From Phoronis australis (Eukaryota; Animalia; Phoronida), in assembly GCA_002633005.1 (NCBI GenBank), contig NMRA01000812.1, positions 62,001 through 126,000 on the forward strand: a stretch of 64,000 nucleotides of DNA, given 5' to 3'. A program made the translations under genes and the position numbers. Below, piece after piece: positions 46,132-64,000 of the stretch (positions are counted from its first letter, which is position 1; each line of letters opens with the position of its first letter). The notes under the pieces are model-generated. The model did no database searches and was not told the origin of the DNA. It saw only the letters and a program-made list of their open reading frames with translations.

Positions 46132-46194
46132 TCAATGAGGTATCTGTTCCCCAAACTTGCTTCTGTGGGCGGCATCTTTGGCTTCAAACAGAAT
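46132..46194 (-). CDS. HDAC6: HDAC6 last coding exon [20 protein letters not shown]-stop
   Basis: ttgtag acceptor; AHxxKFGE motif typical of the HDAC6 C-terminus. Confidence 0.92.
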   Translation of the reverse strand: MLFEAKDAAHRSKFGEQIPH

Positions 46195-49100
46195 CTACAA
46201 GACAAAGTGATGTGAAATCAATATAAGACAATTTTAAGACAACCGCTTTATAAAAAGATCAGCTGTGTGCTCAACATGTGAAACATTAACTGTTATGAAA
46301 TCCATCCACGTCATTGTGCATTTTGCAGACTGAGGTATTTTGATGATTAAGAAAACAAATCTAGTAAGGGCTCGCCACTATATTCATAGGTAATGGCCTG
46401 ATGTAAGGTACCCTAATTTTGAGAACCAGTTTTCTCCACTGAATAACAGGCATCATACTGGTTCTCTATTTCCGGATCCTCCAACACAATTATCAATAAT
46501 TATTAAATTAGGTCATCCAGATTCCAACAATTACAGCTCAACAGCTCCAGTTCGATCTCTTCAACTCAAGTGAAAAGAATCATGAGAATGGCGCACTCTA
46601 TGATCAAACAACTGACTTACTGGGTGGTGGACATATGAGTCGCATGCGTAACACCACACTGACAGGTCGGCGTAACTCAGCACCACCCTATGGCCAGTCT
46701 CCAAGCCATGCATCAACATGTGCTCATTAATATATCGACCACAGTACACCTGAAACAGAGTGCATAGAATGACAACTGGTGCAAACTTCACAGATATCCC
46801 ATAACCCCCCATGAGGCAAGACACTAATGAAACTGAAAAGTACACACATGCTACCTTGCCTGTCACATTACAACTATTTTGAAATCTCTGATTTGCACCT
46901 AGTTTTAAAAACTAGCTGTACAAAAGCCATTTTACTGATAAATGCTCCCATTAATCCAAGCTAGCCAATCACTTTGTTATTACCTCGTAACACTGTAAAC
47001 AGACCCAGTTCTCTGTAGTTCCACCACACTCCCTACAGGGGGCAGCACAGTCCAGTACTCCACCAGGAACCTCCTGGACCAGCTCAAGATGCGGGCACCA
47101 AGGCAACGGGACTACAGCAAACATCTGGTCCGGTGGATTCTGCAGTTAGAAGATGAAGTAACTATGTGCTCCAACATCTTCAGTGTGACCCAAAAGAAAA
47201 CAAAACTCACAAAATGTTGCATAAAATTCTAAATTCTAAATGTTTTTTTTTGGAAACAAAAATGGCAAAACTGCGGAAAGATGAACCATAAACAAAAGTT
47301 TCAATTAAAAATTAAATTTTCATGGGTTTGTTTTTTGTGGTCACTCTGTTTACTTGATCTCGAAATTTAGAAAGGTCATCCCAGTCAGTGTCAAAAAAAA
47401 AAACAACACTTCATCAGTATATATTCCCAAACAAAAGTTTTCACTGAACATTTGTATCCAATGCCCCCCACCGACTTACATTTCCCAACCCTAAGTACTC
47501 CAATACCGTTGTTTGATCTCCAGGGTTGCTTGATCCTCCGCAAGCTCCAACGAGCTGTTGGTTGTCACCCTGTGGACAACAACAACAAACTACAGCGAAA
47601 CAAAGGCAACACCATCCCAACAACAACTTATAACAAGTACAATGCAGTTGGGACTGTCAGTTTGCTACTAGCTCTGCTTGCGATCCTAACTTCCCATTCA
47701 GATGTGGAAAGAGTGAACCCAAAAGATGGGCTAACTACAAATAAACTGTTGGATTAAGCTTATTCCGAAAGCACCAAAAATTTCTTTGCATCAGAATGTT
47801 TATCTGAAGCATTTTAACAATCTGTTCTTGTCTATGTTAATCCCTATAAATGACTAAATATCCAGTACCATATTCGCCCTAAGAAGCATCCAGGGCACTT
47901 AGAAAAATTCATTTCAGGAGGGGGGCGCCTATTATTAGCCTAAGGTGGTTGAAAGCTGGTCTCCGAAATGGGTGAAATCTTAAGCTGGGATTCATCAAAT
48001 TTACGCTCCGTGACGTACCTGTAACCTATGACAGACTTTCTGCAAATTTGTGATGCAATGCTATCAAACTTCGTTGTTAAATTATGAACATTTTTCAGAA
48101 AATTATGCTGATCTCCCAGATCTTATTGATAAATTGAATACGTTACTGTAGAATTTTTAGAATTATAGGTAAGGCATTTTTCGCATGTACACATTCTTGG
48201 ACTGGGCGCTTATTTTAGCAAAGTCTGAAAACACGTGGGGTCGTGCTTATAAGGGCATGGGCGCTTATTAGGGTGAATACGGTATATTGTTTTTTGATTA
48301 AGACCATTGAATTAATCAATAGCTCAACACTTTACTCAAAATCTCATCACAACTTGACAACAGAACATGCAGACGGTGCACCTGTTCAGTCTCCTGTGAA
48401 CTCCCTGGCTCATGGTTGCCATAGTTACTACTATTCTGGTCAGCATGATCATCCACGGAAGGGTCAGAAATAACTACAAAGGGCAAAAATAAAAGAATCA
48501 TAAATGACCAATCAGTGTCTACAAGCATTCCCCGTTAAATGATCAGTTCTCAAAAGTCCGGTTTAACAGTCGGCACTTACCACATCAACAGTGTCCTGCT
48601 ATACACCTTATTCATGCAATTGCCATTTTAAAAGTGAGCTTCTTTAGGTTTTAAAAACAATATAAGCTGCATTTAGACACAACGCAAAGCGTGATTTTTC
48701 CGCATACTTTGTTACATTTGTCCCAAAAACATTGTTTTTTAAACCTGATAAAAGGCTCTCTACTGAAATGGTGACTGCGTGAATAAGGCCTATTGCAGAA
48801 CATGAATTTGCGAGAGGTTTGTAAGGCGAAAAACTAACAGGACGCTAGTTTTCCGCCAGCAAGGCTACAAACCATATGTGAAGTTAATATGTAATGGAAT
48901 TCAATTTGGAATTGTGTCCCTCTTCTCTTACACAGTTAGGCAACTTGCAATTGGTCGATTACATACAAGACATTTCGAATTGACCAATCTACACATACCT
49001 AATGTACTTTCAACCAGCTGACTTATCTTGTCAATATTGTCAGTGCTACTCCCCCCAGGTGTCGCTGCAATGTTGTCAACAACCTCAGATACATTGTTAC

Positions 49101-52100
49101 TTGAAGAACTTTTGTCAACAGCTGTCGCTGCTGAGACTATAGCATCGACCACAGCTCCAACATCGGAGACGGCCTGTGCGTGGAGATCTGTGTCACTAAG
49201 AGGCTCTACTTCAGTGACATCTGTTGCTGATGGCTCCACCATAACAATTGGTGGAAGTTTTACTAAAAAATACAAATTAAAAGTTAATATGTTTTTAAGA
49301 CATACAGACAATGTTATATATACAGCAATTATTGCATATTGCATGCAGGCATTGTTCTCAACAAAATTTTCAATTAATTTTAAAAGCAAAACAAAAAAAT
49401 CTGGCAAATCTTCCTGTGACCACCACTTTTTCAAAAAAAAGACAAAAACTTTACTCAGACTGCGTGAAGAATCATTCAAGCCTTTAGAGCTAGCAGCACT
49501 AGTACTCGAAGACACGCACCCCTGAACTGAAGACATTTCCAATATTGTCGTTGAGTGTCCAACACATTGCCAATGGAAATACAAGCACTGAAATGACAAA
49601 GGTAAGACAATCATTACAGTGACTCATTGACTTAACATTGTGAAATGGAAATATGTGAAGTACTTTAAGAGGCCCTATCATGATGACTAGAACTCCATGA
49701 ACGAACTTACATCTCAAAAGCACAATCCTGCAAATGTACGTTAGTGAATGTACAAAAGGACATGAATGAGAGCCTGGATGTAATGTGACAGCAATTTCTG
49801 AGGCTGTGCTCATATTTATTCAGGAAAAAAATTCAATCCAAAGCCCCCAAAATAATGCACGGAAAATGTGATAAGCTGAGAAAAAAATTCAGCGCTTGGT
49901 TTTTCAGAGTTTCTACACCTCATGATTGAATGAAAAATAAATAAATTCTAATTAATCTAACTGGACATCAAACATTTTGTGACACTGTCAACTATTTGCA
50001 GCATACCATGAAGATGGTCAGACGGCACAACCAACTTATTTTATGTTTCTCTAGATTTCTCAAAAACATTTTTGAGAATAGAGTACCGAAAGGTTCTTGC
50101 ACACAACGTATCTGAACAAAATAGAATATGCAACACTATCATGTTCATGTTGTCAATGAGAAATATTTCATTAGAGCACACAGCGTTGCATTTACTAGAT
50201 ATAAAACCAAATGTCAATCAAAGACAAACTCTGCACCCTGTTTACCTTAAGCACGGTGGCTGAAGATTGTCCAGGGGAGGACATGGGTCCCCCAGGAGGC
50301 TTGATGTGCAGGCAACAAACGACTGTGATATCGAGTAGAGGTTGTAGCCACCCTCCAGGGCCAGGATCACACGTCCGTTGGCCAGGCTCATTAACATATG
50401 AGTCATGTGGGCGTAGGCTTCAGGACTCACTCTATAACCACCCTGCGGTAATTAAGCAAAGATGTGATTTGAAGACACCACTGAAGTAATACAAATGAAG
50501 AAAGGATGTGATTCTATAATTACCCCGCAGCAAACAATAAAGAAAGAGACTTGATAGCAACTCTGTTGTGACCAAGAAATTATGAGATTTTACGAAAATC
50601 CCTTAACAATTTTTTGAGAGAAATTACATCAGTCAGTTAACACAAAAATTAGACTACTTATTATTTTCACTAGCAAACTATTCACTTGTTTGCGAGTCGA
50701 GTGAATGTAAACACTTAAGATGACACTGACAGTGAAAGTCTATCTTACGCAGGGTTGTAATGCAACCGACAACCTGGAAGTAATTGACTAAAAAGCTTAT
50801 GTCCTCCTATTGGCCAAGATTGACTCAGTCGATCGTACCTCACAGTGATGTCAGATGAGTGGAAACATTTGGAGGAACATACGTAGCATGTCAACAAAAC
50901 AAACGTTTTCTTGAAATATTCCAATAATTGGATAAATATTAATAACAAATACCTATACCAACCGCATTAAGAAGAAAATATTTCAACACACCCAAAAATA
51001 GGTTGGCTTCTTGTGACGCGACCTATTTCCCACGCATTTGGAAATTTGATACAATTATAATCACTAAAATGCAGCCCTAGCACTACTAAACAATAAAATC
51101 TTAACATTTGTACATCAGAGAATAAACATTGATGACAGCACAACTACAAGTTAAATGTGAATGACGTAATGGAAACAGTAGTGATTACCAGCACGTTCCA
51201 CGGGTGGTGTTCATGATGGTGATGGTGGTGATGGTGCAACGTGGNGCATGATACTGTGTGATTTATGTTGAATTATTCAACGGTTCTTTTAAGAACCATT
51301 TCACGCCATAGCTACAACCAACGGCCCTTTTAAGGGCCACTCAACACTTTCCAGAAGAACTGCTCACTTGAGAATGTATAAACATGCTTTCGTAGTTTTC
51401 TCAGTAGGCCTATGTGAACCATAAATCAAAAATTGTGCGATAGCTATGCTGCTATTGGGCAAGCAGACGACATAATCAGTTGGCACCGAAGTTTGAATTT
51501 TGTAATTAATTACCAGTAGCATTGCCAAAAGTACTCATAATACCAACACTTCTACTATTGAAAGACTTTGAAAAGCATTTCAATGCCGAAATTAATATTT
51601 TTTTCGTTGTTTTGGACAGTAAAGTAGATGCAAGTATTTGTCGTCAAAAAACACTAACCGGAAACTGCACGAGAAAGGTCAGGAGAGTTCAGCTCAGCAG
51701 GTAAGGATATGCCGGAGTTGCGAATCTGTTGTCTATAATCTATGGTTCCACGGGTGGTGTTCATGATGGTGATGGTGGTGATGGTTCAGAGGCAACGTGG
51801 TGAAGATGAAAATCAACAATGGTAAGGATGATGATGTTGATGATGGAGGCGATGATGACTACATTGGTGGTCATGACAGTGGTTATGGTAATGGTGGTTA
51901 TTGTGGTGGTGGTGCTGATAATGGTATTGTGGTGATTGTGCTGGTGCTGATAATGGTGGTTGTGGTGATGATTGTGGTGCTGATAATGGTGGTTGTGGGG
52001 ATGGTTGTGGGGATGTTTGTGGGGATGATGATGGTGATGATGACTAAGCAGAAAAAACGTACCAGTGGATCACCGCGAGCTGCATCAAATCCTGCTGACA

Positions 52101-52965
52101 CCAGAACCAGTTCAGGAGCAAACTGTAACAGAAATTACTCAAAGATTCACAATAAGACATCAAGCTTCACCCAGGGGTAAAGACCATGGCTTAAATAGGC
52201 ATAATTTATGTTTAAGCAGGAAGCAATAAATGAATAGCAGAGAGTATGCCCCAATCCACACAAGTTCCTGTCATTAACAATAGCCTAGGTACTCAATAAC
52301 CAGAGCAAACAGGTGATAGAAAAACAAGACCATGTGATTACCTCGTATGCAACAGGCATGATGATCTGTTGGAAGGCAGCAATGTATTTATTGTCTCCCA
52401 TGGCTACCTGAAGTACACACAGCTCAACTCAATGTATGGTACCAAGTAAATCATACACGTTCACATGTGGCCTCGACTGCTACGTAGGGTGGTACTGGGA
52501 CTTGGCTTTTGATTACACAGTGCACCATCCTTAAAGTAGACTGACTTAACTAAAATCAAGAGCTTATCTGTCTAACTCATGCAGCCACATAAAATAATTA
52601 AAATAATTTTACAAGTATGCAAAAAAAGGTTAGGTTTGGAAAATACAGGTCAAAAGTTTACCCAACGGAAAAGCAAAGTCAGCGCCCACTATGAACAAGG
52701 CATTTCCAGGGATGCAGATACTGCTATGCTGTACTCAGAGTACACATGTCACGTGTAATCAATATTGCCCCTGGATGACAAAAACTGGTCTCCTTACGCC
52801 ATTCCAAGGAATGTTGATGTTGAAGCCGCGACCTTCACCTTTGCCAACTTTGTCGTAGTTTGCTTCTGTTGATCTAGGGAAAAATGCTGCGTTGTCGTAG
52901 CGATGCAGAGAGATGTACAGGACACTGGAAATAGAATGGCATGCACAATCATGCTTACATTGGGT

Positions 52966-53038
<73 letters not shown>

Positions 53039-56000
53039 ACGAGTTTATGTTTACATCACAAAAAACAGAATTATATGACTGGGTGGCATAAATGTTCTTA
53101 TGAATAATTTACCTGAATGGAGAGAACTTACTTGGGATCACCTTCCAACATGCTCTGTGTACCGTTACCATGGTGAACGTCCCAGTCAACAATCAACACT
53201 CTGCAATCACAACAAGGAAATAAATTATAAACAAATGAGACTGAATATCATCGTCAGTCACCAACATTGTAATTACAACAACCAGGAGACAGAAACCAAC
53301 TCTTACACCCAGTGTATACACTTACCACATATTGTACACAGTAACTCATACCGTGCATAAACACACATACCACGGAATGGCTGGACTTCAACCATGACCA
53401 GGCAATCTTACAATGGACAACGACCAGGCAATCTTACCACACACACTGTTTAGTACAAGTGACCAAAGTCCAGTTCTTGTGTTTTTTTCGGTCACTTGCA
53501 CCAAAGAGTGAGTCTTTTGCAAGACTGCACATGTCAAGTGGTTGAAGTTCAGATCCGAGGTAGGGAATTTTGTGCCTGGTATATTTGTGGCAAAAAATCC
53601 TGGTTCCTTGTATTTGTCATTCCCAAGGGTTACAGTTTCTGTAACTAGTTAATTGCATAATATAAATTATATCACGACGTGAATGTTCTTTTTCATCTAA
53701 CCATTTTGGACTTTCAGGACTTCGACTGTACGTGCGACAGAATGTTTTATCGCAAACTGCATAAACACATTCTGACGATTACAGTCCATAGTGGACACAA
53801 CTATGTCAACTTTGAAGCAATCTCAAGATAAAAGTTTGGAGTGGAGGAAGCTGACCTTTTGACGCCAAACTTTCTCTGTGCATATTTCGCCGCTACAGGT
53901 ACGTTGTTGAACAAACAGAACCCACATGCTGTGTCCTTCTCAGCATGGTGACCAGGAGGGCGGATAAAGGCGACACCATTCAAACACTGAAAGGATAAAA
54001 GTTATGCCTTTATATTACCCAGCATGTAAAATTCATGTACCAACAACACTGAAGGATATGCAATGAATCGTTTATTATGTACCAACAGCACTGAAGGATA
54101 TGCAATGAATCGTTCATTATGTAACAATTACAATACTGAAGGAAATGTAATGAATCGTTCATTACGTACCAACAACACTGAAGGATATGCATTGAATCGT
54201 TCAATATGTTTCAGATAATAGCATTAACATGACTTTCGTTTTGTGAGCAGTTTACAATGATGTTCTTTCAAAACATATGCATGAAAATCACATCCACAAC
54301 AGACAGATGTCAGATGTTAGTTTAAGTAATTACAAAATCCTCTTATTGCTACAGAACTGTAATAAACAACTCCAATAATTAACATCATATTACCTGTCTA
54401 CTGAGCACAGCATCCACCACATTTAGGAGACTACCAGCTGACAGCAAAGCACAATCATAGCTCTNAGGATAAAAGTTATGCCTTTATATTACCCAGCATG
54501 TAAAATTCATGTACCAACAACACTGAAGGATATGCAATGAATAGTTCATTATGTACTAACAACACTGAAGGATATGCAATGAATCGTTCACTATGTACCA
54601 ACAGCACTGAAGGATATGCAATGAATCGTTCGTTATGTAACAATTACAATTATACTGAAGGAAATGCAATCAATCGTTCATTACCTACCAACAACACTGA
54701 AGGATATGCAATGAATTGTTCACTATGTTCATATTATAGCATTAACATGACTTTCGTTTTGTGAGTTTACAATGATGTTCTTTCAAAACATATGCATGAA
54801 AATCACATCCACAACAGACAGATGTCAGATGTTAGCTTAAGTAATTACAAAATCCTCTTATTGCTACAGAACTATAATAAACAACTCCAATAATTAAGAT
54901 CATATTACCTGTCTACTGAGCACAGCATCCACCACATTTAGGAGACTACCAGCTGACAGCAAAGCACAATCATAGCTCTCCTGGATATAGAAAACACATT
55001 ATTGCACTATATACAGGTGACACATCATTACACAATACCTTAGTAATTTGCATATGACAATCAATGTTCCTATAAACACGCCTCCAGTAAAAAGAACTTT
55101 GCTTTAGACCACTTTCAACTTGTTCCATTCTCACACTAGAGGGGGCTTCAAAGCCTGGAAAGCATGATTCAGAACTATTTGTTACAACTTGATAGCAGGC
55201 CCAACAAGTTGGTTTGTCACTGTGTGCAGAGGATGTCCTCAAACAATAATGAGCTGTCAATTCATCACAAGTCCATGAATTAGTCTTATCTAAGTAAGAA
55301 ACAAGTTAAGACCAGGTTATTCATGTAGGGAACTGGTATTTAAACAAACATTCATTTGTCTGTTTGATGGAATGTAACTTAAAACAACTCCAGTACAACT
55401 CATACGAAACCAGACAAAGCACTGACTCCGTGTGACGATGGTCAATTCTGCCTGCAGATTTATTTTCCCCAATTCCAGCTGAAAATATGCATAACCTGTA
55501 AAGTACAGCCCTATACTAGAAGCAGTCTTACCAGTCAAGTTCTTTTCCACTGAGCAAATCGCAGTCTAATGACACCACGCCTTAATTTATGGACATGAAG
55601 TATATGAATGGTTGACTTACAGGCAGGAGGTATATGGATGTGAACTTTGAGGCTATCTGAAACAGCTCCCTGGGCTTGGTTCGAGAAAATGATTCGACTT
55701 CTTCAATGTATGATTGGCTGTAGGAAGAGAAGGAGAATTATAGTGAGGAAGGTAGTGAAATCTAGGCCCAAAATTAACACTCTCAAAGCCAGACATTCAC
55801 AATAATAGATAAACTCTTAAAGCCAGACATCCAATACTAGATACCTGACTCAAGGTACACTGTCTACTCTTAAAGTGTGCTATGAAACTCAATTTCAGAT
55901 AGCGCAAATGCCTCAGGACTGTTGTGGAGGCTTTATTTTGAGAAATCTATTCATACTTCAAAACAAACTACCTCACTTCATCATGGTACTTGACTTCAAG

Positions 56001-59000
56001 ATATAGTAACCTCCTGAATTCAACTCTTCTCNCTACCTCACTTCATCTGGTACTTGAGTTCAAGATATAGTCACATTCTGAATTCAACTCTCTTTTGTGG
56101 AGGTAGGAAAAAGCATATGATTGACCTAGATTTTGAAATGTTAAGTCACAAAACACTCCGGACTAAAGACAAACAAGAAAAGATCAAAACACCGTGCCCT
56201 GTCTTGTTTATTACATTGTTTGGTGCTGGCATTGCAAATCAATGTGGAGCGATAATACTTAATTGCTACCATTGAAATCATTAATGTCATCGTCAAAAAT
56301 TGTTGTCCTATTGAAGGTACACCTTGACAAATTCACTCACCTATGAACAGCTAATAACTCTTCATGGGTTACTCTTCTTGACTGAAAACAATATTTCAAA
56401 TCAGAATTCACTACACTGCATATCTCAGAGCTTAAAATAACGACCGCATTTTTAACAATTACAACATCAGCTTGTCAAACTTTCTGCGCAGTACTTAATC
56501 TGTTTAACAGTTACCCTTAAAAACAATTTGTTACCTGCAGTTGGCTATACTGGCTAACTTAATCAACTAGCTTAAAGCACCTGACAAATTGTGTAAAATT
56601 GCTGCATAGTATGTGACATAAAGTTTTCAACAATTGTAAACAACTTATTAATGACTTCACAACAAGTAATCAGTGTTAAACAAATAAATGCTACATTTAA
56701 TGTATGTCCTAAATATCCCAATCAATGGCAAGACGCACAGTGTATATCACAGTAGTATCACTACCTCAACTTGTATACACCTAGTCAACAAGTCATGGTC
56801 TTTGTGTGCGTTAAATATCTTGGTGATTCTGTCTGGCCTCTCAGGGTGGCTCCTAAAAACAGGGAATGCAAATCAGAATGGTGTACTAAGCAATCAATTG
56901 TGAAAAGACAGTTCACATCCTCCCTCTGAAGAATGAAGCTGCCTTGCAATTAAGTACTACAATACATTCATATGATTCAAGACATTTTAAGCTTAGTGTG
57001 GAAATGCCAAATTGGTATTCGTTGGAAATTTTAAAATATACGTGTCATCAATACAAAGAATTTGACGAGATGGAAGCCCTCCATGGAACAAGAGGGCAAT
57101 TCAGTAACAAAACTTGATTTCACAGTTTGTGTAAAATATTGACCACAAACATTTTTAAGTTTGATTTGACACAATGAGCATAAATCTGAAGGGATTTCTG
57201 CCCCATTCGGACTCAACACTCGGGACCTTCTGCTAACCGTGCAGCCAACAGGTGGCATGCAGACCAGACTTATACATTTTATGATCTGTATTTCCACACC
57301 GGTTCATGATTTAGATATTCGTATAAAATAATGACNCTGGCCTCTCAGGGTGGCTCCTAAAAACAGGGAATGCAAATCAGAATGGTGTACTAAGCAATCA
57401 AATGTGAAAAGACAGTTCACATCCTCCCTCTGAACAATGAACCTGCCTTGCAATTAAGTACAGAACTGCAATACATTCATATGATTCAAGACATTTTAAG
57501 CTTAGCGTGGAAATGCCAAATTGGTATCCGTTGGAAATTTTAAAATATACGTGTCATCAATACAAAGAATTTGACGAGATGGGAGCCATCCAGGGAACAA
57601 GACGACAATTCAGTAACAAAACTTGTTTTCACAGTTTGTATAAAATATTGACCACAAACATTTTTAAGTTTGGTCTGACACAATGAGCATAAATCTGAAG
57701 GGATTTCTGCCCCATTGGGACTCAACACTCGGGACCTTATGCTAACCGTACAGCCAACAGGTGGCATACAGGCCAGACTTATACATTTTATGATCTGTAT
57801 TTCCACACCGGTTCATGATTTAGATATTCGTATAAAATAATGACGTATTGACAAACTTTTCATGAATCTCTGGGGACATGTCCTTTAAAGCTTTACCTGT
57901 AGTCATTAATAATGACATTAATTTCCAGCAACAATACACAATTTTCCTTATGACTCGGCTTCATCTCCAGATCATGTCATATGCAAATAATGAACAATAC
58001 CAATAACCAAACTCACGTGTCCACAGTATTTCTATGCCTTCTCATGGCTTCATCGTAAACATAACACGTTCTGAAATTAAACACTTGTAAATTACTTCTA
58101 CAAACAGTTAAGTTCAAATTACCCAGAATAAAACTTGAACAAGTCATCAAAATCATGATTAAATTCCCGACATCAAATNAGTCATTAATAATGACATTTC
58201 CAGCAACAATACACAATTTTCCTTATGACTCGGCTTCATCTCCAGATCATGTCATATGCAAATAATGAACAATACCAATAACCAAACTCACGTGTCCACA
58301 GTATTTCTATGCCTTCTCATGGCTTCATCGTAAACATAACATGTTCTGAAATTAAACACTGTCTTGTAAATTACTTCTACTAACAGTTAAGTCAAAATTA
58401 CCAAGAATAAAACTTGAACAAGTCATCGACACCATATTTAAATTCCTGACATCAAATAAAATGGAAAATTATACAGGTTGACATTTGGCTGCGCATACGT
58501 GATGACCGAGCTGCTCGTGTTATAAAGTATGCATGCTTAACCATTAAAAACTACCTGTGTCACCTCATAATGGTCTTGCTCAACATGCAAGGCTCTTGCT
58601 CATGTGAATGAAACCCCAGCACAGATTCCAAACTGGGACAGCCTACCTATTAGGAGGGGTGGTCAGGTCTGTCTCCTTAATGAGCTGTTCCACTAAGGCA
58701 TTAGTCTCATCCACAACATCTTGAGGTAGAGGGGGATCAGTGTCCAGACTGTATACACTGGGTTTGTTCTCAGCTGTGATAAATGGAGGCTCATCACTGC
58801 AAGAGACAATAACAATACAAACCATTAGGGATCATTTTAGAGAAATGCGGGCAAGAGCAAATTGACCCACACAGCCTCATGTTTATGGGCCAAATTGGAG
58901 GACCCATGGGCCTTGTTATTTTATCAGCCTCATGTTTATGGGCCAAATTGGATGACCCATGGGTCTCGTTATTTTATTGTCCTTTTTCATTTCCAATTTT

Positions 59001-62000
59001 AATGGGCCCGTTGACCGGAGCTAAACAATAACAGTATGTGAATGAAATCATTTTGGTGACAATGACGAGGAACCCACTCCTAAAATTATCCCAACTATAG
59101 GACAAACTTCTTTGGCTTAAGAGACCAGCAGTCAAATGGCCAGGTGTCTCAGAAGACCAAACGAATATTCATAGGACATTTTCAGAAAATAACCAAGCTA
59201 CTAGTAGGTAATACTCAGATGACGTTGAAAAACATAATGGTCCAAAAGGCCATAACAACATAATGACTGCAAGAATTTTCATCAATGCCACGTGAGAAGA
59301 TCAGACTTGTTAGCATACAATGTATTTTACAAGCCTAAGAAAGTTAATGGTTGTCATTTGTGACATTAAAATGCCAAAAACATGAAAACATACAAATACT
59401 TACTAGTTAATGAAGGTTATGATGTCAAAAATATTAATTACTTAATCAGCTTTAAAACACTCAAATGAGACTCAATTGTAATACAGCATCAACTCACCAG
59501 ATGTCAGGAATGTTTGGTACCCAGAAGTTTTTCTCCGCCACTGCTTGATGACACAGACTTTTCCAATATGGCCGCAAGACACAGATACATCTCAAGATAG
59601 TGTCCACAACACTGTTAACAACACAAGCACATAAATATTAATTAGCCCGACATACAGAGACAACAAGTTTTAGATTGTAATTAAGCCGTGCTTGCATCCC
59701 TATCATAAGTTATCATTATCACTAATCACACACCCATTGATATGTGAAGCCTTGGTCCAAAGGTATGAAAACTTTGTGAAGAGTCTGAAAGTTTCACTGT
59801 CCGTGTTAAATAGCTTTGTTCGACAAAACAAATCTAAGATCTCAAATAGCCAGACAAGATCAACGTCTTCCTGTTGTCACAAAAATGTGAACCAATTTGG
59901 TGACTGTGCACATACATGTATTTGATACATACACATCTGAGGGTTCTCCAAGCGATGCAATAGCTGGACATGGGTCGCCTAGCAACCCTCTCAGTGTTAA
60001 GGCAACAGACTCGGCCAGCGATTTCAAGTTGTAACCACCCTGAAAGAAAAAATCATCACCATCAGATGTATGTTTGCATAATTCGCTAAAATTATGAACA
60101 CTTGTTTACGAGGTTGTTTGAAAACTGTGTTAAATGAACACAACATGTACTTTTAGTGATACAAGAGCTATGTTCACAATGGAGACATAAATCAAATGCT
60201 GGAGTGAAGAGAAGTCTGGCCACTTCAATTAAAACTGGACTAATTTGTGGACTGCCAGTGACCATACAGGGTGCTTAGTCACATCTTGCCTCAAGCACTA
60301 CTAACAGAGCTTGGTGTCAATCAGGAGAGATATGAATCACATCAAGTACAACACAGTGCGTTGTTAGGTAGGGGAGATAATTTAATGCATCGTATCTTAC
60401 CTCAAGCACCACACAGAGCTTGTTGTCAGCCAGGGGAGATAACATGTGGATGAAGTGAGGGAAACAGGCAGGTTCCACTTTCATTTCACCCTACAGACAA
60501 TAACACAAAAAACAAAATTACGTCACACCAAAGGAAACGCAACCCGAGGTTATAGACGCAAATTTAAAAGTTTACCCTTTACTTGTATCAGCAGATATTT
60601 GGCTCTGAAAGCAATGCACAAGACATATCTGAAGCACATAATTAGGCTAATTGTAACNAAAAAAAACAACATAAAAACGAGGAATTGTTTTGAGGTCACA
60701 AAGTCTGATTATGTTTCTGTGCCCAATCAATGGCATATTAGATCAGTGAATTAAACTGTGTAAGGTCCACTTTGACAACAAACATTATTTCCAAAAGAAT
60801 AACCTCTTTAGCAACTGATACTGTATTAAGAATTGTCTTTATAACTAAAGATAATAATTTACTAAATATCTGTCAGTCATGTACAGGTACAAATAAGTAA
60901 TCACCTTAAACTCCTGTTTCGCAAGTTCATGAATCGAAAGCTGACATGGGTGCTGACTACAGTAAGAAGGCGCCACACGGCAAAAACATTTACATTTGCA
61001 TGCCCTGTTCGCCAAAATCTACAGATCCCAAGGTAATTTACCACAGACTCCAGAAATGACCAGGTAGGAAAAGCTAGTTGCCGTGACAAGAGAGGTCTTT
61101 TCAGACTTGATGTCACAGTGTAAGGACAATGGACTGACTAAATGTTAATACAACAAAGTTGATGAAAAGGAGAAAAAAAATAAATTTATCATACAAAGTA
61201 AATAAGAAAATATTTACTTTATGGCAGCCAATTGCTGAATCAAAGCCAGCAGACACAAGAACCACTTGAGGCTGAAACTGAACAGAACAACAAAGTTTTC
61301 GGTACGAGTAACAAACTAGTACTAATAAGAAAGAATTCGACGAGAACAGAGGACATAGACATGGTCACATGGTGAGGTCAAAGGTCGGACAACAAGGTAA
61401 TGAGGGCACTGAATAAACTTGGTGGTTCAAGGAGCAATGAATTTGGAATGTTGTTGTAGATTCTCAGAGACAATTAGACACACTTGTGTGAGCAAACTGG
61501 CTGTGTGGAAGGTCAACCAGTTCACTACATAATCGCTTGCGCACTGATAGAGGTCAATTCCAGACATTTTAGTGCACCCACTGTGTCAGGCTCTGCATTT
61601 ACTGAGTGGCAAACAATAGGAAAATCAGTTGGACAGTGAAATGCAGAAATTAGAATGTCTGGACCTCAACTTCTCTAACAAGCGTCTGAGTAACAGAGTA
61701 CATTTCTTAAACATTCACATTTTAGAAGCAAAAACGATTCTAAAAAAGAGTTTTTAATTATACAATTAGGTATTCAGCAGAAAATTCTGTTTAACATTTG
61801 TCAAAAACTGTGACCATGTAAATGCTCCCTGTTCCCCTCATGACAACACAGCAGACATTCAAATACCTCGGGACATCCAACAGCGCCATCATACCCGGCA
61901 GACACTAAAACTATCTGTGGTGCAAACTGGAAAAATATTCAAGAAATGGTAACCAAAGAAATGTAATTAATTTCTACTTGAACTACCAACTTTGACTGCA

Positions 62001-63501
62001 CACGGAACAAATTGCGTTCCTTACAAAACCATTTCAATTGGTGCAGGTCTCCAGAGCATAAGAAATATTTAACTTCAAGTCTCCTTTAATCAATATAACA
62101 GTGGAAATTTCCTCTCAAATGAAAAACAGGATGAAGAATATCATGTAATACTTACCTCGTAGGCGACAGGCATCAACAGTTGTTGGAATATTGCCATATA
62201 GTCACTGTTACCCAACCCAGTCTGTAACAAAAGTCCATGACATCACCAATTTAGGAGTCAAATGAACAACCATTAACCAATCCACACAAACCAATGACAT
62301 CACAAATATGAAAGACATCGTAAAGCAATGACATCAGAAACACAACAGCCAATGAATGTTCTAGTTCTTCACCACTGTCACTGAAGCACCAAATATTATG
62401 CAACTCCCTCAAAAGTGATCACATACCATCATTTGTATTACGCAAAATAGATTTAGCAACAATTAATTGTAACTTTCCTAATGTTTTCGAGTATATTAAA
62501 CACGTTGCTTTTTATAGTAGTTACGTTTTACAAAAAATATTGTTCAACAAATAACAAACAAGTGTTAACTGAGACTGGGAAACAGAAATTGAATAAATAT
62601 TTCAAAGTATTCAACAAGATCAAACAGTCATGAAACACAGTAGAGTCCGCTCAGTGATCCACAAGTTTATTCATATACACACAAGGGATAGCTGTCTGCT
62701 CCAACAAGTATAGCTTAAGAACACACTAGACCCGAATCAAATTGAATAGTCATGTACTAACGACTCCAAGAAACACATTTAGTAGGAAACTGAGGCAGGG
62801 GCCAATAAACATGTACATTACGATAATTGTTTTTTCATTTAAACCAACTTATTGTTATTAAAACAACATAGGCAAAAATTCAATTTTGAGCTTCAAAAAT
62901 GGTGCCTCCCATTTTAATATAGTGCCCCACTTTTGAGGCCTGAAATTGAATTTTTGCTTATATGTGAAATATTAAAAATAAGTCGTTTACAATGACAAGC
63001 TGTAGATAACTGTTCTTTACTCACANGATAACTGTTCCTTACTCACAGTGTTAAGAGGAACATTGATGTTAAAGCCACGACCTTTTCCCTCGCCAATGTA
63101 GTCATAGTCGGACTCACGAAGATTTGGCCAGTAAAACCCATATTCAAAACGATGAATGGAAAAATAAAGAACCCTGTAATAAAATAACAATTGTACACTA
63201 AAATCATGTGCAGTGCAATTCTTAAAACTCTTGCTGAAATTACAGAATATAGTCTCAATTAGTTTGGGTCACAAAGTTGAGAGCAAACAAAATGATGAAA
63301 AAAGTTTGAAACAAACAACCAGATTATCTTGAGCAGGAGACAAAGAACAGTTCATGTAATTAGTTCACAAAGAGTATACCATTGAAGCAAAAATGGGCTC
63401 TTGGCATCAAAAACTACTTAATCAAGACTTGCCTTGGGTCATCGTAAAACATCTGTTGGGTGGCCTGGCCATGATGAACATCCCAGTCTACGATCAATAC
63501 A
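46132..63501 (-). CDS. HDAC6: Histone deacetylase 6 (class IIb; tandem deacetylase domains plus ZnF-UBP), multi-exon; 5' part lies beyond the window end
   Basis: The spliced exons give two HDAC domains ([10 protein letters not shown] twice, SAG[YF]D, LEGGY twice, RPPGHHA and GFC in CD2) and a C-terminal ZnF-UBP (CPHL...CRECG...WVCLQC...CGRY...H...H...WCYACDSYV). Exon phases are mutually consistent; stop TGA at 46132-46134. Confidence 0.96.
46621..46749 (-). CDS. HDAC6: HDAC6 ZnF-UBP exon [43 protein letters not shown]
   Basis: tttcag / gtaagt, 129 nt. Confidence 0.95.
46984..47139 (-). CDS. HDAC6: HDAC6 ZnF-UBP exon [18 protein letters not shown]...[10 protein letters not shown]
   Basis: ctgcag / gtaata, 156 nt. 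Confidence 0.94.
47480..47569 (-). CDS. HDAC6: HDAC6 exon [30 protein letters not shown]
   Basis: ccacag / gtaagt, 90 nt. Confidence 0.78.
47868..48282. mobile_element. MITE with TA target site duplication (Tc1/mariner/pogo-type) in an HDAC6 intron
   Basis: TA|ccatattcgccctaagaagc ... gcttattagggtgaatacgg|TA; a related end is at 3535-3568. Confidence 0.8.
48382..48473 (-). CDS. HDAC6: HDAC6 linker exon [30 protein letters not shown]
   Basis: ttgtag / gtgcac, 92 nt; phase 1-0 is required to connect the flanking exons. Confidence 0.72.
48597..48797. mobile_element. Palindromic MITE-like element in an HDAC6 intron
   Basis: ctgctatacaccttattcatgca...ttttaaaaacaat is mirrored by attgttttttaaacc...tgcgtgaataaggcctattgcag. 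Confidence 0.55.
48999..49262 (-). CDS. HDAC6: HDAC6 Ser/Thr/Asp-rich linker exon [11 protein letters not shown]...VESTL
   Basis: ttttag / gtatgt, 264 nt, phase 1-1, open frame. Confidence 0.8.
49520..49587 (-). CDS. HDAC6: HDAC6 exon [22 protein letters not shown]
   Basis: tttcag / gtgcgt, 68 nt, phase 2-1. Confidence 0.88.
50246..50442 (-). CDS. HDAC6: HDAC6 CD2 exon [35 protein letters not shown]...LQPPCL
   Basis: ccgcag / gtaaac, 197 nt; catalytic Tyr of EGGY. Confidence 0.95.
51760..52045. repeat. (TGG/TGA)n low-complexity tract
   Basis: Degenerate trinucleotide repeat; it explains the GG/DD/VV-rich ORF at 51797. Confidence 0.88.
52063..52122 (-). CDS. HDAC6: HDAC6 CD2 exon [20 protein letters not shown]
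   Basis: ttacag / gtacgt, 60 nt; canonical CD2 GDPL. Confidence 0.95.
52342..52407 (-). CDS. HDAC6: HDAC6 CD2 exon [22 protein letters not shown]
   Basis: cttcag / gtaatc, 66 nt. Confidence 0.93.
52798..52924 (-). CDS. HDAC6: HDAC6 CD2 exon [42 protein letters not shown]
   Basis: ttccag / gtaagg, 127 nt. Confidence 0.95.
52968..53033. repeat. (GA)n microsatellite
   Basis: Direct reading of the sequence. Confidence 0.97.
53132..53200 (-). CDS. HDAC6: HDAC6 CD2 exon [22 protein letters not shown]
   Basis: ttgcag / gtaagt, 69 nt; Zn ligands D-x-H. Confidence 0.95.
53856..53986 (-). CDS. HDAC6: HDAC6 CD2 exon [43 protein letters not shown]
   Basis: Catalytic His-His dyad RPPGHHA and GFC motif; tttcag / gtcagc, 131 nt. 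Confidence 0.96.
54030..54730. repeat. 42-48 bp intronic minisatellite (two haplotype-like blocks: 54030-54205 and 54505-54730)
   Basis: Unit tatgtaccaacaacactgaaggatatgcaatgaatcgttcat. Confidence 0.85.
54909..54980 (-). CDS. HDAC6: HDAC6 CD2 exon [24 protein letters not shown] (second copy at 54394-54464)
   Basis: atccag / gtaata, 72 nt. Confidence 0.9.
55621..55717 (-). CDS. HDAC6: HDAC6 CD2 exon [32 protein letters not shown]
   Basis: ctacag / gtaagt, 97 nt; SIY motif. Confidence 0.9.
56341..56381 (-). CDS. HDAC6: HDAC6 CD2 exon [13 protein letters not shown]
   Basis: tttcag / gtgagt, 41 nt. Confidence 0.9.
56765..56852 (-). CDS. HDAC6: HDAC6 CD2 exon [29 protein letters not shown]
   Basis: HPExPxR motif; ttttag / gtagtg, 88 nt. 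Confidence 0.92.
58292..58345 (-). CDS. HDAC6: HDAC6 CD2 exon [17 protein letters not shown] (second copy at 58017-58070)
   Basis: tttcag / gtgagt, 54 nt; the copy differs by one synonymous base and lies across an n join. Confidence 0.88.
58647..58796 (-). CDS. HDAC6: HDAC6 inter-domain linker exon [11 protein letters not shown]...ETDLTTPPN
   Basis: ttgcag / gtaggc, 150 nt, phase 2-2, open frame. Confidence 0.85.
59498..59611 (-). CDS. HDAC6: HDAC6 exon [37 protein letters not shown]
   Basis: taacag / gtgagt, 114 nt, phase 2-2; domain-terminal YW motif. Confidence 0.88.
59933..60039 (-). CDS. HDAC6: HDAC6 CD1 exon [35 protein letters not shown]
   Basis: tttcag / gtatgt, 107 nt; catalytic Tyr of EGGY. 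Confidence 0.92.
60401..60490 (-). CDS. HDAC6: HDAC6 CD1 exon [30 protein letters not shown]
   Basis: ctgtag / gtaaga, 90 nt. Confidence 0.92.
61218..61277 (-). CDS. HDAC6: HDAC6 CD1 alternative exon B: [20 protein letters not shown]
   Basis: gttcag / gtaaat, 60 nt, phase 0-0, open frame; homologous to exon A but clearly diverged. Confidence 0.85.
61867..61926 (-). CDS. HDAC6: HDAC6 CD1 alternative exon A: [20 protein letters not shown]
   Basis: ttccag / gtattt, 60 nt, phase 0-0; carries the Zn-ligand Asp (AGYD). Confidence 0.9.
62156..62221 (-). CDS. HDAC6: HDAC6 CD1 exon [22 protein letters not shown]
   Basis: ttacag / gtaagt, 66 nt, phase 0-0. Confidence 0.93.
62832..62997. mobile_element. 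Palindromic MITE-like element in an HDAC6 intron
   Basis: ataggcaaaaattcaattttgagcttcaaaa pairs with ttttgaggcctgaaattgaatttttgcttat. Confidence 0.55.
63047..63173 (-). CDS. HDAC6: HDAC6 CD1 exon [42 protein letters not shown]
   Basis: ttacag acceptor, gtgagt donor, 127 nt; a partial duplicate at 63793-63855 follows an n. Confidence 0.93.
63433..63501 (-). CDS. HDAC6: HDAC6 CD1 exon [22 protein letters not shown] (GC donor)
   Basis: Acceptor tttcag; donor AAG|gcaagt; 69 nt, same length as the CD2 paralogous exon. Confidence 0.92.
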
Positions 63502-64000
63502 CTGAAATAGAATCACGAGGAGTCAATATTGGTTGAACAGAATACTGGGCACTGGTTGTTATTTCCTTCAAATAAACAAGCTTTATTCACTTTCGTCCAA
63601 TATTCTTCACATATTAAGGAAACTACACGTAGGAGTTAATGTGTGCATAACGCTTAATCGTCGTGAGAGACCGTCCCGAGTTGGTATGTGGTGCAACTCA
63701 GGACGGTCTGGGGTCTACAGAAAACCATTGTTCAACTGTGAGTCTACACCAATGTGATAAACGAGAGTAGTTCTACTTGCTGCGTCAGCTGNGACTCACG
63801 AAGATTTGGCCAGTAAAACCCATATTCAAAACGATGAATGGAAAAATAAAGAACCCTGTAATAAAATAAAAACTGTACACTAAAATCATGTGCAGTGCAA
63901 TTCTTAAAACTCTTGCTGAAATTACAGAATATAGTCTCAATTAGTTTGGGTCACAAAGTTGAGAGCAAACAAAATGATGAAAAAAGTTCGTAACAAACAA

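Follow-up and report, generated by a model that had tools for sequence, protein, structure and literature searches.

Tandem alternative exons in a phoronid HDAC6 gene predicted to exchange the gatekeeper residue of the first catalytic domain

The role of the first catalytic domain (CD1) of HDAC6 is a long-standing puzzle. In the phoronid Phoronis australis, the HDAC6 gene carries two adjacent, homologous exons at one place in this domain, the first ending in glutamate and the second in lysine, which raises the question of whether one gene can make two forms of CD1 with different substrates. An earlier note on this DNA had proposed as much, namely that mutually exclusive splicing yields either an HDAC10-like or a vertebrate-HDAC6-like CD1. 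We consider it probable that this is a tandem-duplicated CD1 exon pair that is spliced alternatively (shown for the lysine exon, likely for the glutamate exon) and is predicted to switch substrate preference through its Glu/Lys gatekeeper.

The exon pair and its gene

The window analyzed here is a stretch of 64,000 nucleotides of P. australis (contig NMRA01000812.1, positions 62,001 to 126,000, assembly GCA_002633005.1), and all positions are counted from its first base. Using tblastn with mollusc HDAC6, we located part of an HDAC6 gene on the reverse strand (46153..63501), comprising the second half of CD1, the second catalytic domain (CD2), a linker and a ZnF-UBP; the 5′ part, with the first half of CD1, lies beyond base 64000. 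Two tandem deacetylase domains with a C-terminal ZnF-UBP are the architecture of HDAC6 (class IIb), and the nearest protein among those compared was HDAC6 of the brachiopod Lingula anatina (60.7% over 623 residues). Splice sites were checked for 21 exons and the 3′ end of the gene was read by eye. RNA support was drawn from three stranded raw-read runs bearing the same species label (X1/X2/X3, the order in which read counts are given; 18–19% of each run’s reads were used, with 3 reads as the threshold for listing a joint). One intron in the coding region of CD1 is of the GC-AG type (63432-63174; donor GCAAGT; RNA joint with 3/5/2 reads).

The pair lies between a constitutive exon of 66 nt whose translation ends in PVAYE (62156..62221, reverse strand like all features below; AG/GT; upstream joint 63047>62221 with 3/5/3 reads) and a constitutive exon of 90 nt that starts with GEMKVEP (60401..60490; downstream joint 60401>60039 with 9/2/4 reads). 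Exon A (61867..61926; recognized by translation, AG/GT sites, alignment and RNA depth) ends in Gly-Cys-Pro-Glu (GCPE) and so places a glutamate at the gatekeeper position, while exon B (61218..61277; translation, AG/GT sites and both RNA joints) ends in Gly-Cys-His-Lys (GCHK) and places a lysine there. Direct inspection of the sequence thus bore out the positions and translations that the earlier note had given, together with its description of two homologous 60-nt, phase 0-0 exons with valid splice sites. Both exons retain the zinc-ligand Asp, as had been claimed, and do so in 30/30 species compared. The single homologous exon of CD2 (52063..52122) was likewise as described, ending in leucine (GDPL; translation and splice-site check).

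Exons A and B are identical at 37/60 nucleotides and 13/20 amino acids (20 codons: 5 identical, 8 synonymous, 7 non-synonymous), and their intron flanks are unrelated (18/50 and 17/50 matches). By comparison, an exon duplicate of the haplotype type in another part of the gene agrees at 53/54 positions, and no N occurs between 60658 and 63026, hence none between A and B; the view that the pair is far more diverged than such duplicates, with no assembly join inside it, therefore stood. Near-identical extra exon copies adjoining single Ns occur at 63890-63792, 58070-58017, 54464-54393 and near 57345, and look like haplotype or assembly duplicates. In splice-site score, A and B fell within the range of the remaining exons of the gene, although the B donor scored toward the bottom of it. 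As neighboring homologs that agree in length and phase and have splice sites of their own, A and B show the layout expected of mutually exclusive exons, and the reading frame through CD2 stays open with A alone, B alone, A+B or neither.

Splicing of A and B and the intron between them

Exon B was joined to both constitutive neighbors in RNA. The joint 62156>61277, in 7/1/1 reads, skips A in those molecules, and the joint 61218>60490 was found in 10/0/6 reads, with no variant letters listed inside exon B. B is therefore a real exon, and A and B are not both constitutively included. Depth over exon A (bin 61866-61927) was 0/1.65/1.89, with zero in both neighboring bins; this amounts to ~102 and ~117 bases in X2 and X3, or at least 2 reads per run. 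Depth confined to A between empty bins fits spliced reads. At this depth of about 2 reads per run, neither a joint of exon A nor an A>B joint rose above the 3-read threshold, also at finer binning. Of the four junctions singled out by the earlier note, the two of exon B were thus both counted, while the two of exon A (62156>61926 and 61867>60490) stayed below 3 reads, with reads confined to A in 2/3 runs as the evidence in its favor. Counts of A reads (0, ~2 and ~2) were too few to call regulation of A/B usage between runs. In X1 and X2, the intron after B also gave sense-strand reads (60502-60811), with loose ends at 60662 next to an N at 60658; intron retention or pre-mRNA, together with an assembly join, is the likely source.

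At 60 nt each, A and B can be kept apart neither by frame nor by decay. According to the passages of PMC5740500 on such control, a plain steric block needs a donor-to-branch-point distance of <50 bases, and competing intron pairings are a recognized mechanism; at 589 nt, the A-B intron is too long for the former. Within it, we found a predicted helix of 27 pairs (3 G-U; −43.1 kcal/mol), whose 5′ arm (61809..61839) starts 27 nt after the A donor and whose 3′ arm (61339..61369) ends 61 nt before the B acceptor, leaving 27 and 61 free bases on the two sides. It appeared in the MFE structure as well as in the centroid, kept 26.7 expected pairs in the ensemble of the whole 1.8-kb region, was stronger than 29/29 control stretches by ensemble folding, and reached −43.1 kcal/mol on the sense strand versus −35.1 kcal/mol on the opposite strand. 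By plain match score it was equaled by 2/150 shuffles and 3/33 real stretches; the folding z-score of the region was −1.9, and the prediction comes from one species, with no covariation. Its 5′ arm could also pair with the downstream exon (−30.7), a pairing not in the folded ensemble. In the model, the helix would shorten the A-B intron to ~90 free bases and bring the A donor to roughly 40–55 bases of likely branch points, and it could in this way hinder or block the joining of A to B.

A weaker candidate is formed by an arm upstream of the A acceptor (61965..61993), which overlaps a branch-point-like UUAAU and is complementary to 61415..61443 inside the A-B intron; this pairing would loop A out (score 19, matched by 0/150 shuffles and 2/33 real controls; −19.8 kcal/mol) and is absent from the ensemble. 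Pairings between different introns, to which a cruder windowed duplex test was confined, did not exceed shuffles (2/12, 5/12, 5/12 and 6/12 as strong). There was no Rfam match in 60000-62600, and no second copy of the A-B intron occurred in the window, which speaks only weakly against its being a decayed transposon.

Distribution of the two forms and origin of the glutamate

The earlier note had called for a search of related invertebrate genomes, and conservation proved wider than the window could show, with both forms in molluscs, nemerteans, crabs and insects. Both were found in at least 15 of the 20 protostome HDAC6 clusters opened (9/10 and 6/10, among the members listed, up to 15 per cluster). 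In a table of 37 rows, 21 species had separate Glu-only and Lys-only isoforms, and 8 further species had A+B gene models (7 of these 8 rows were chosen because they showed both). Taxa with separate isoforms included oysters, mussels, Dreissena, Mercenaria, Biomphalaria, Haliotis, the nemerteans Lineus and Tubulanus, the crab Eriocheir, locusts, thrips, Anopheles and Lutzomyia. The remaining 8 rows showed the Glu form only: Patella, two spiders (one row), Musca, Stomoxys, Haematobia, two Lucilia and Drosophila ananassae. With only A in flies, two spiders and Patella, B is, judging from these sequences, dispensable in some lineages.

Across the A/B exon pairs of 30 species, that of P. australis included, position 20 was Glu in 30/30 A exons and Lys in 30/30 B exons, and position 18 was Cys in 30/30 A exons and Asp in 29/30 B exons, the sole exception being the present exon B. 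When the last residue was omitted, matching A with A and B with B still scored above the crossed match in 204/204 lophotrochozoan-arthropod species pairs (pairs that are not independent of one another), and exon order was Glu then Lys in 24/24 tandem protostome-type models. The simplest reading of these comparisons is that the pair arose once, before the two branches of protostomes diverged. In the history we propose, Lys would be the older bilaterian state, the Glu exon would have been gained once in the protostome ancestor, and B would have been lost in higher flies.

Exon B of P. australis is itself unusual. It ends (61218-61226) in GCHK where 29/29 other B exons end in GDxK, with Cys in place of Asp, and by score it is nearer to the A set (70) than to the B set (60). 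The combination of this Cys with Lys occurred in no other compared protein of ≥600 residues; B may have undergone gene conversion by A or may have been made anew.

As to mutual exclusivity, alternative use held up, as B is spliced with A skipped; strict exclusion is open to doubt, with the joints of A below 3 reads and 24 gene models that carry A+B in tandem. For Crassostrea, Mytilus, Lineus and Eriocheir, RefSeq lists A+B models beside single-exon isoforms; for Lutzomyia there is a model without either exon. The A+B models suggest that exclusion is leaky or that the models are artefacts. Among transcript-sized Logan proteins (n = 39, some of them paralogues), 38 had the Glu form, 1 the Lys form and 0 both. 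Decapod crustacean HDAC6 models run to ~1900–2000 residues, with an additional deacetylase domain. A GDxE gatekeeper also occurs singly in crinoid, leech and mite HDAC6, from which the change of Lys to Glu may have arisen several times.

In deuterostomes, the CD1 gatekeeper of 101 representatives (one per cluster) was Lys in 92, Met in 1 and Leu in 1, with 7 unparsed; by hand, these 7 gave 3 Lys, 1 crinoid GDPE and 3 that remained unread. In one amphioxus model the segment is present twice, with Met at the end of one copy and Lys at the end of the other. We then built a quick tree with the exon segment left out, in which 3/4 HDAC10 rows were unnamed and assigned by motif. Vertebrate HDAC10 grouped with vertebrate CD1 (SH-aLRT 96), and all protostome CD1s formed one clade (SH-aLRT 97) that included a mollusc gene named HDAC10; no HDAC10 orthologue was found among the sampled protostome sequences. 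Molluscs possess a second class IIb gene (~690–900 residues), which has no ZnF-UBP; its CD1 is Glu-only and its CD2 loop is altered. This gene groups with protostome HDAC6 CD1 and not with vertebrate HDAC10, and its Patella copy bears the name HDAC10.

These comparisons favor independent origins for the glutamate of HDAC10 and that of exon A. The opposing idea is that HDAC10 and HDAC6 of vertebrates each inherited one member of an ancestral A/B pair. An AU test did not reject a grouping of HDAC10 with protostome CD1 (p 0.118). The idea is disfavored by the grouping of HDAC10 with vertebrate CD1 and by the Lys of echinoderm, hemichordate and amphioxus representatives (one representative per cluster). 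Among the sequences compared, none was identified as cnidarian or sponge.

Substrate preference, alternative readings and known systems

Exon A aligns to residues 255-274 of zebrafish HDAC10, its last residue to E274; in CD1 of zebrafish HDAC6, the aligned stretch stops immediately before the lysine of GDPK. The swapped residue maps directly onto solved structures. The earlier note had identified this residue as the class IIb gatekeeper, and both the alignment and the gatekeeper passages of Hai et al. (2017, PMC5454378) agree. As described there, HDAC6 CD1 has a lysine gatekeeper, which selects C-terminal acetyl-lysine, HDAC10 has Glu, and the residue is otherwise Leu or Met; zebrafish E274 is a proven specificity gatekeeper, and K330 sets specificity for an anionic substrate. 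The E274L exchange lowers polyamine activity 20-fold and raises acetyl-lysine activity ~100-fold, and an HDAC10 mutant lacking ηA2 is bifunctional, with polyamine activity cut 15-fold. The same passages call the gatekeeper necessary but not sufficient.

The ηA2 (PACE) insertion lies in loop L1, outside the window; in relatives it was absent from 20/20 protostome CD1s checked and present in 4/4 HDAC10-type rows. The Glu form is therefore best modeled on the bifunctional mutant and the Lys form on vertebrate CD1. By this analogy, the Lys form would act like vertebrate CD1 and prefer acetyl-lysine next to a free C-terminal carboxylate, and the Glu form would disfavor C-terminal acetyl-lysine and favor cationic substrates, more likely as a mixed polyamine/lysine deacetylase than as a dedicated one. 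Of the earlier proposal, the Glu and Lys gatekeepers stand, but “HDAC10-like” was an overstatement, given the missing ηA2. It is likely, again by analogy, that one gene makes two enzymes differing in substrate preference. Because 7/20 residues differ between the exons, such an effect need not stem from the gatekeeper alone. We found no activity data for invertebrate isoforms in the literature.

Other readings of the pair were weighed against this one. If the Glu isoform were a dedicated N8-acetylspermidine deacetylase, protostomes would gain by splicing what vertebrates have as a second gene; the Glu at the E274 position and the lack of an HDAC10 orthologue among sampled protostomes, in a tree with clades at SH-aLRT 96 and 97, would suit such a full HDAC10 equivalent. 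Yet ηA2, whose loss so reduces polyamine activity in HDAC10 (PMC5454378, in the passages cited), is missing from every protostome CD1 checked, the Glu-only mollusc paralogue without a zinc finger could do the same job, and the AU test leaves HDAC10 with protostome CD1 unrejected, so that we regard full equivalence as quite unlikely.

Exon choice might instead act as an on/off or binding switch, with one isoform catalytically weak and CD1 tuned as a scaffold or a regulator of CD2 in place of a change in substrate class. Several points would accord with a switch of this kind: most peptides are poor substrates of vertebrate CD1, the exons differ at seven of 20 residues beside the zinc ligand, and Cys versus Asp at position 18 is conserved almost as well as Glu versus Lys. 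We nevertheless think it unlikely, as the zinc-ligand Asp is kept in both exons of every species compared, the other catalytic motifs are intact, and the sole fully invariant difference is a charge reversal at a known specificity site. That the pair is an assembly or haplotype duplicate, or a dead copy without function, might be suggested by the near-identical exon copies beside single Ns in the same window; the low identity of A and B, their unrelated flanks and the lack of an N between them make this reading wildly improbable, and it is refuted by the RNA joints and by the same pair in 29 other species across phyla.

The preferred reading of an alternatively spliced exon pair with a predicted substrate switch can be carried further. 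One splice choice might, for >600 million years and in most protostomes, have made CD1 either a C-terminal acetyl-lysine or a polyamine deacetylase, with an RNA clamp in the intron to enforce the choice, tissue or condition to regulate it, and vertebrates arriving there independently by HDAC6/HDAC10 gene duplication; we offer this extended version tentatively, as the less probable one. That molluscs, nemerteans, crustaceans and insects have kept both charges as splice forms is an argument for the importance of catalysis by CD1, and natural isoform pairs differing in few residues are now on hand. Since Drosophila HDAC6 shows the Glu form alone, it may be unsuited as a model of vertebrate CD1. 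By analogy with HDAC10, the Glu form also suggests a source of invertebrate polyamine deacetylase activity. One lineage would have reached this active-site change by duplicating an exon, and another would have reached it by duplicating a gene.

Compared with vertebrate HDAC6 CD1 (zebrafish K330, human K353), the domain is the same, exon B ends in Lys and the L1 loop has the same length in relatives. Vertebrate-type CD1 differs in having the usual Asp two residues before the Lys, where exon B here has Cys, and no alternative Glu form occurs among the 101 deuterostome representatives, save for the crinoid with its single GDPE. It also has steric bulk opposite the gatekeeper (human F105 and Y225); the site we take to be that of Y225, by inferred mapping and outside the window, was Tyr in 11 and Phe in 5 of 16 relatives. 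HDAC10 shares with exon A the Glu at position 274, within GDPE as against GCPE here. It differs in its ηA2 helix, which protostome CD1s lack, and in its second domain, a pseudo-deacetylase with no zinc finger following, whereas CD2 motifs are intact here and a ZnF-UBP follows.

Ancient tandem homologous exons that tune enzymes are a known kind, and the HDAC6 instance is one that we found undescribed: the isoform sequences sit in public annotations without comment, no description of the A/B pair was found in the open-access literature (listings and the openings of abstracts, with few subscription journals), and HDAC does not appear in the main text of PMC9741552. Catalogues based on human and Drosophila would likely overlook the pair, as there is a single exon type in human HDAC6 and only A in flies. 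The main text of PMC9741552 describes tandem duplicated exon substitution events in ACOX1, KHK, PKM and PFKP, and a protostome-wide pair in Ca-α1T older than 610 million years. Like the four enzyme pairs, of which one exon is used per transcript (PMC9741552, main text), A and B are ancient, homologous exons of equal length that encode the same structural region and touch ligand-binding residues, and they too may be used one at a time. Unlike those events, the HDAC6 swap is a clean charge reversal at one characterized gatekeeper.
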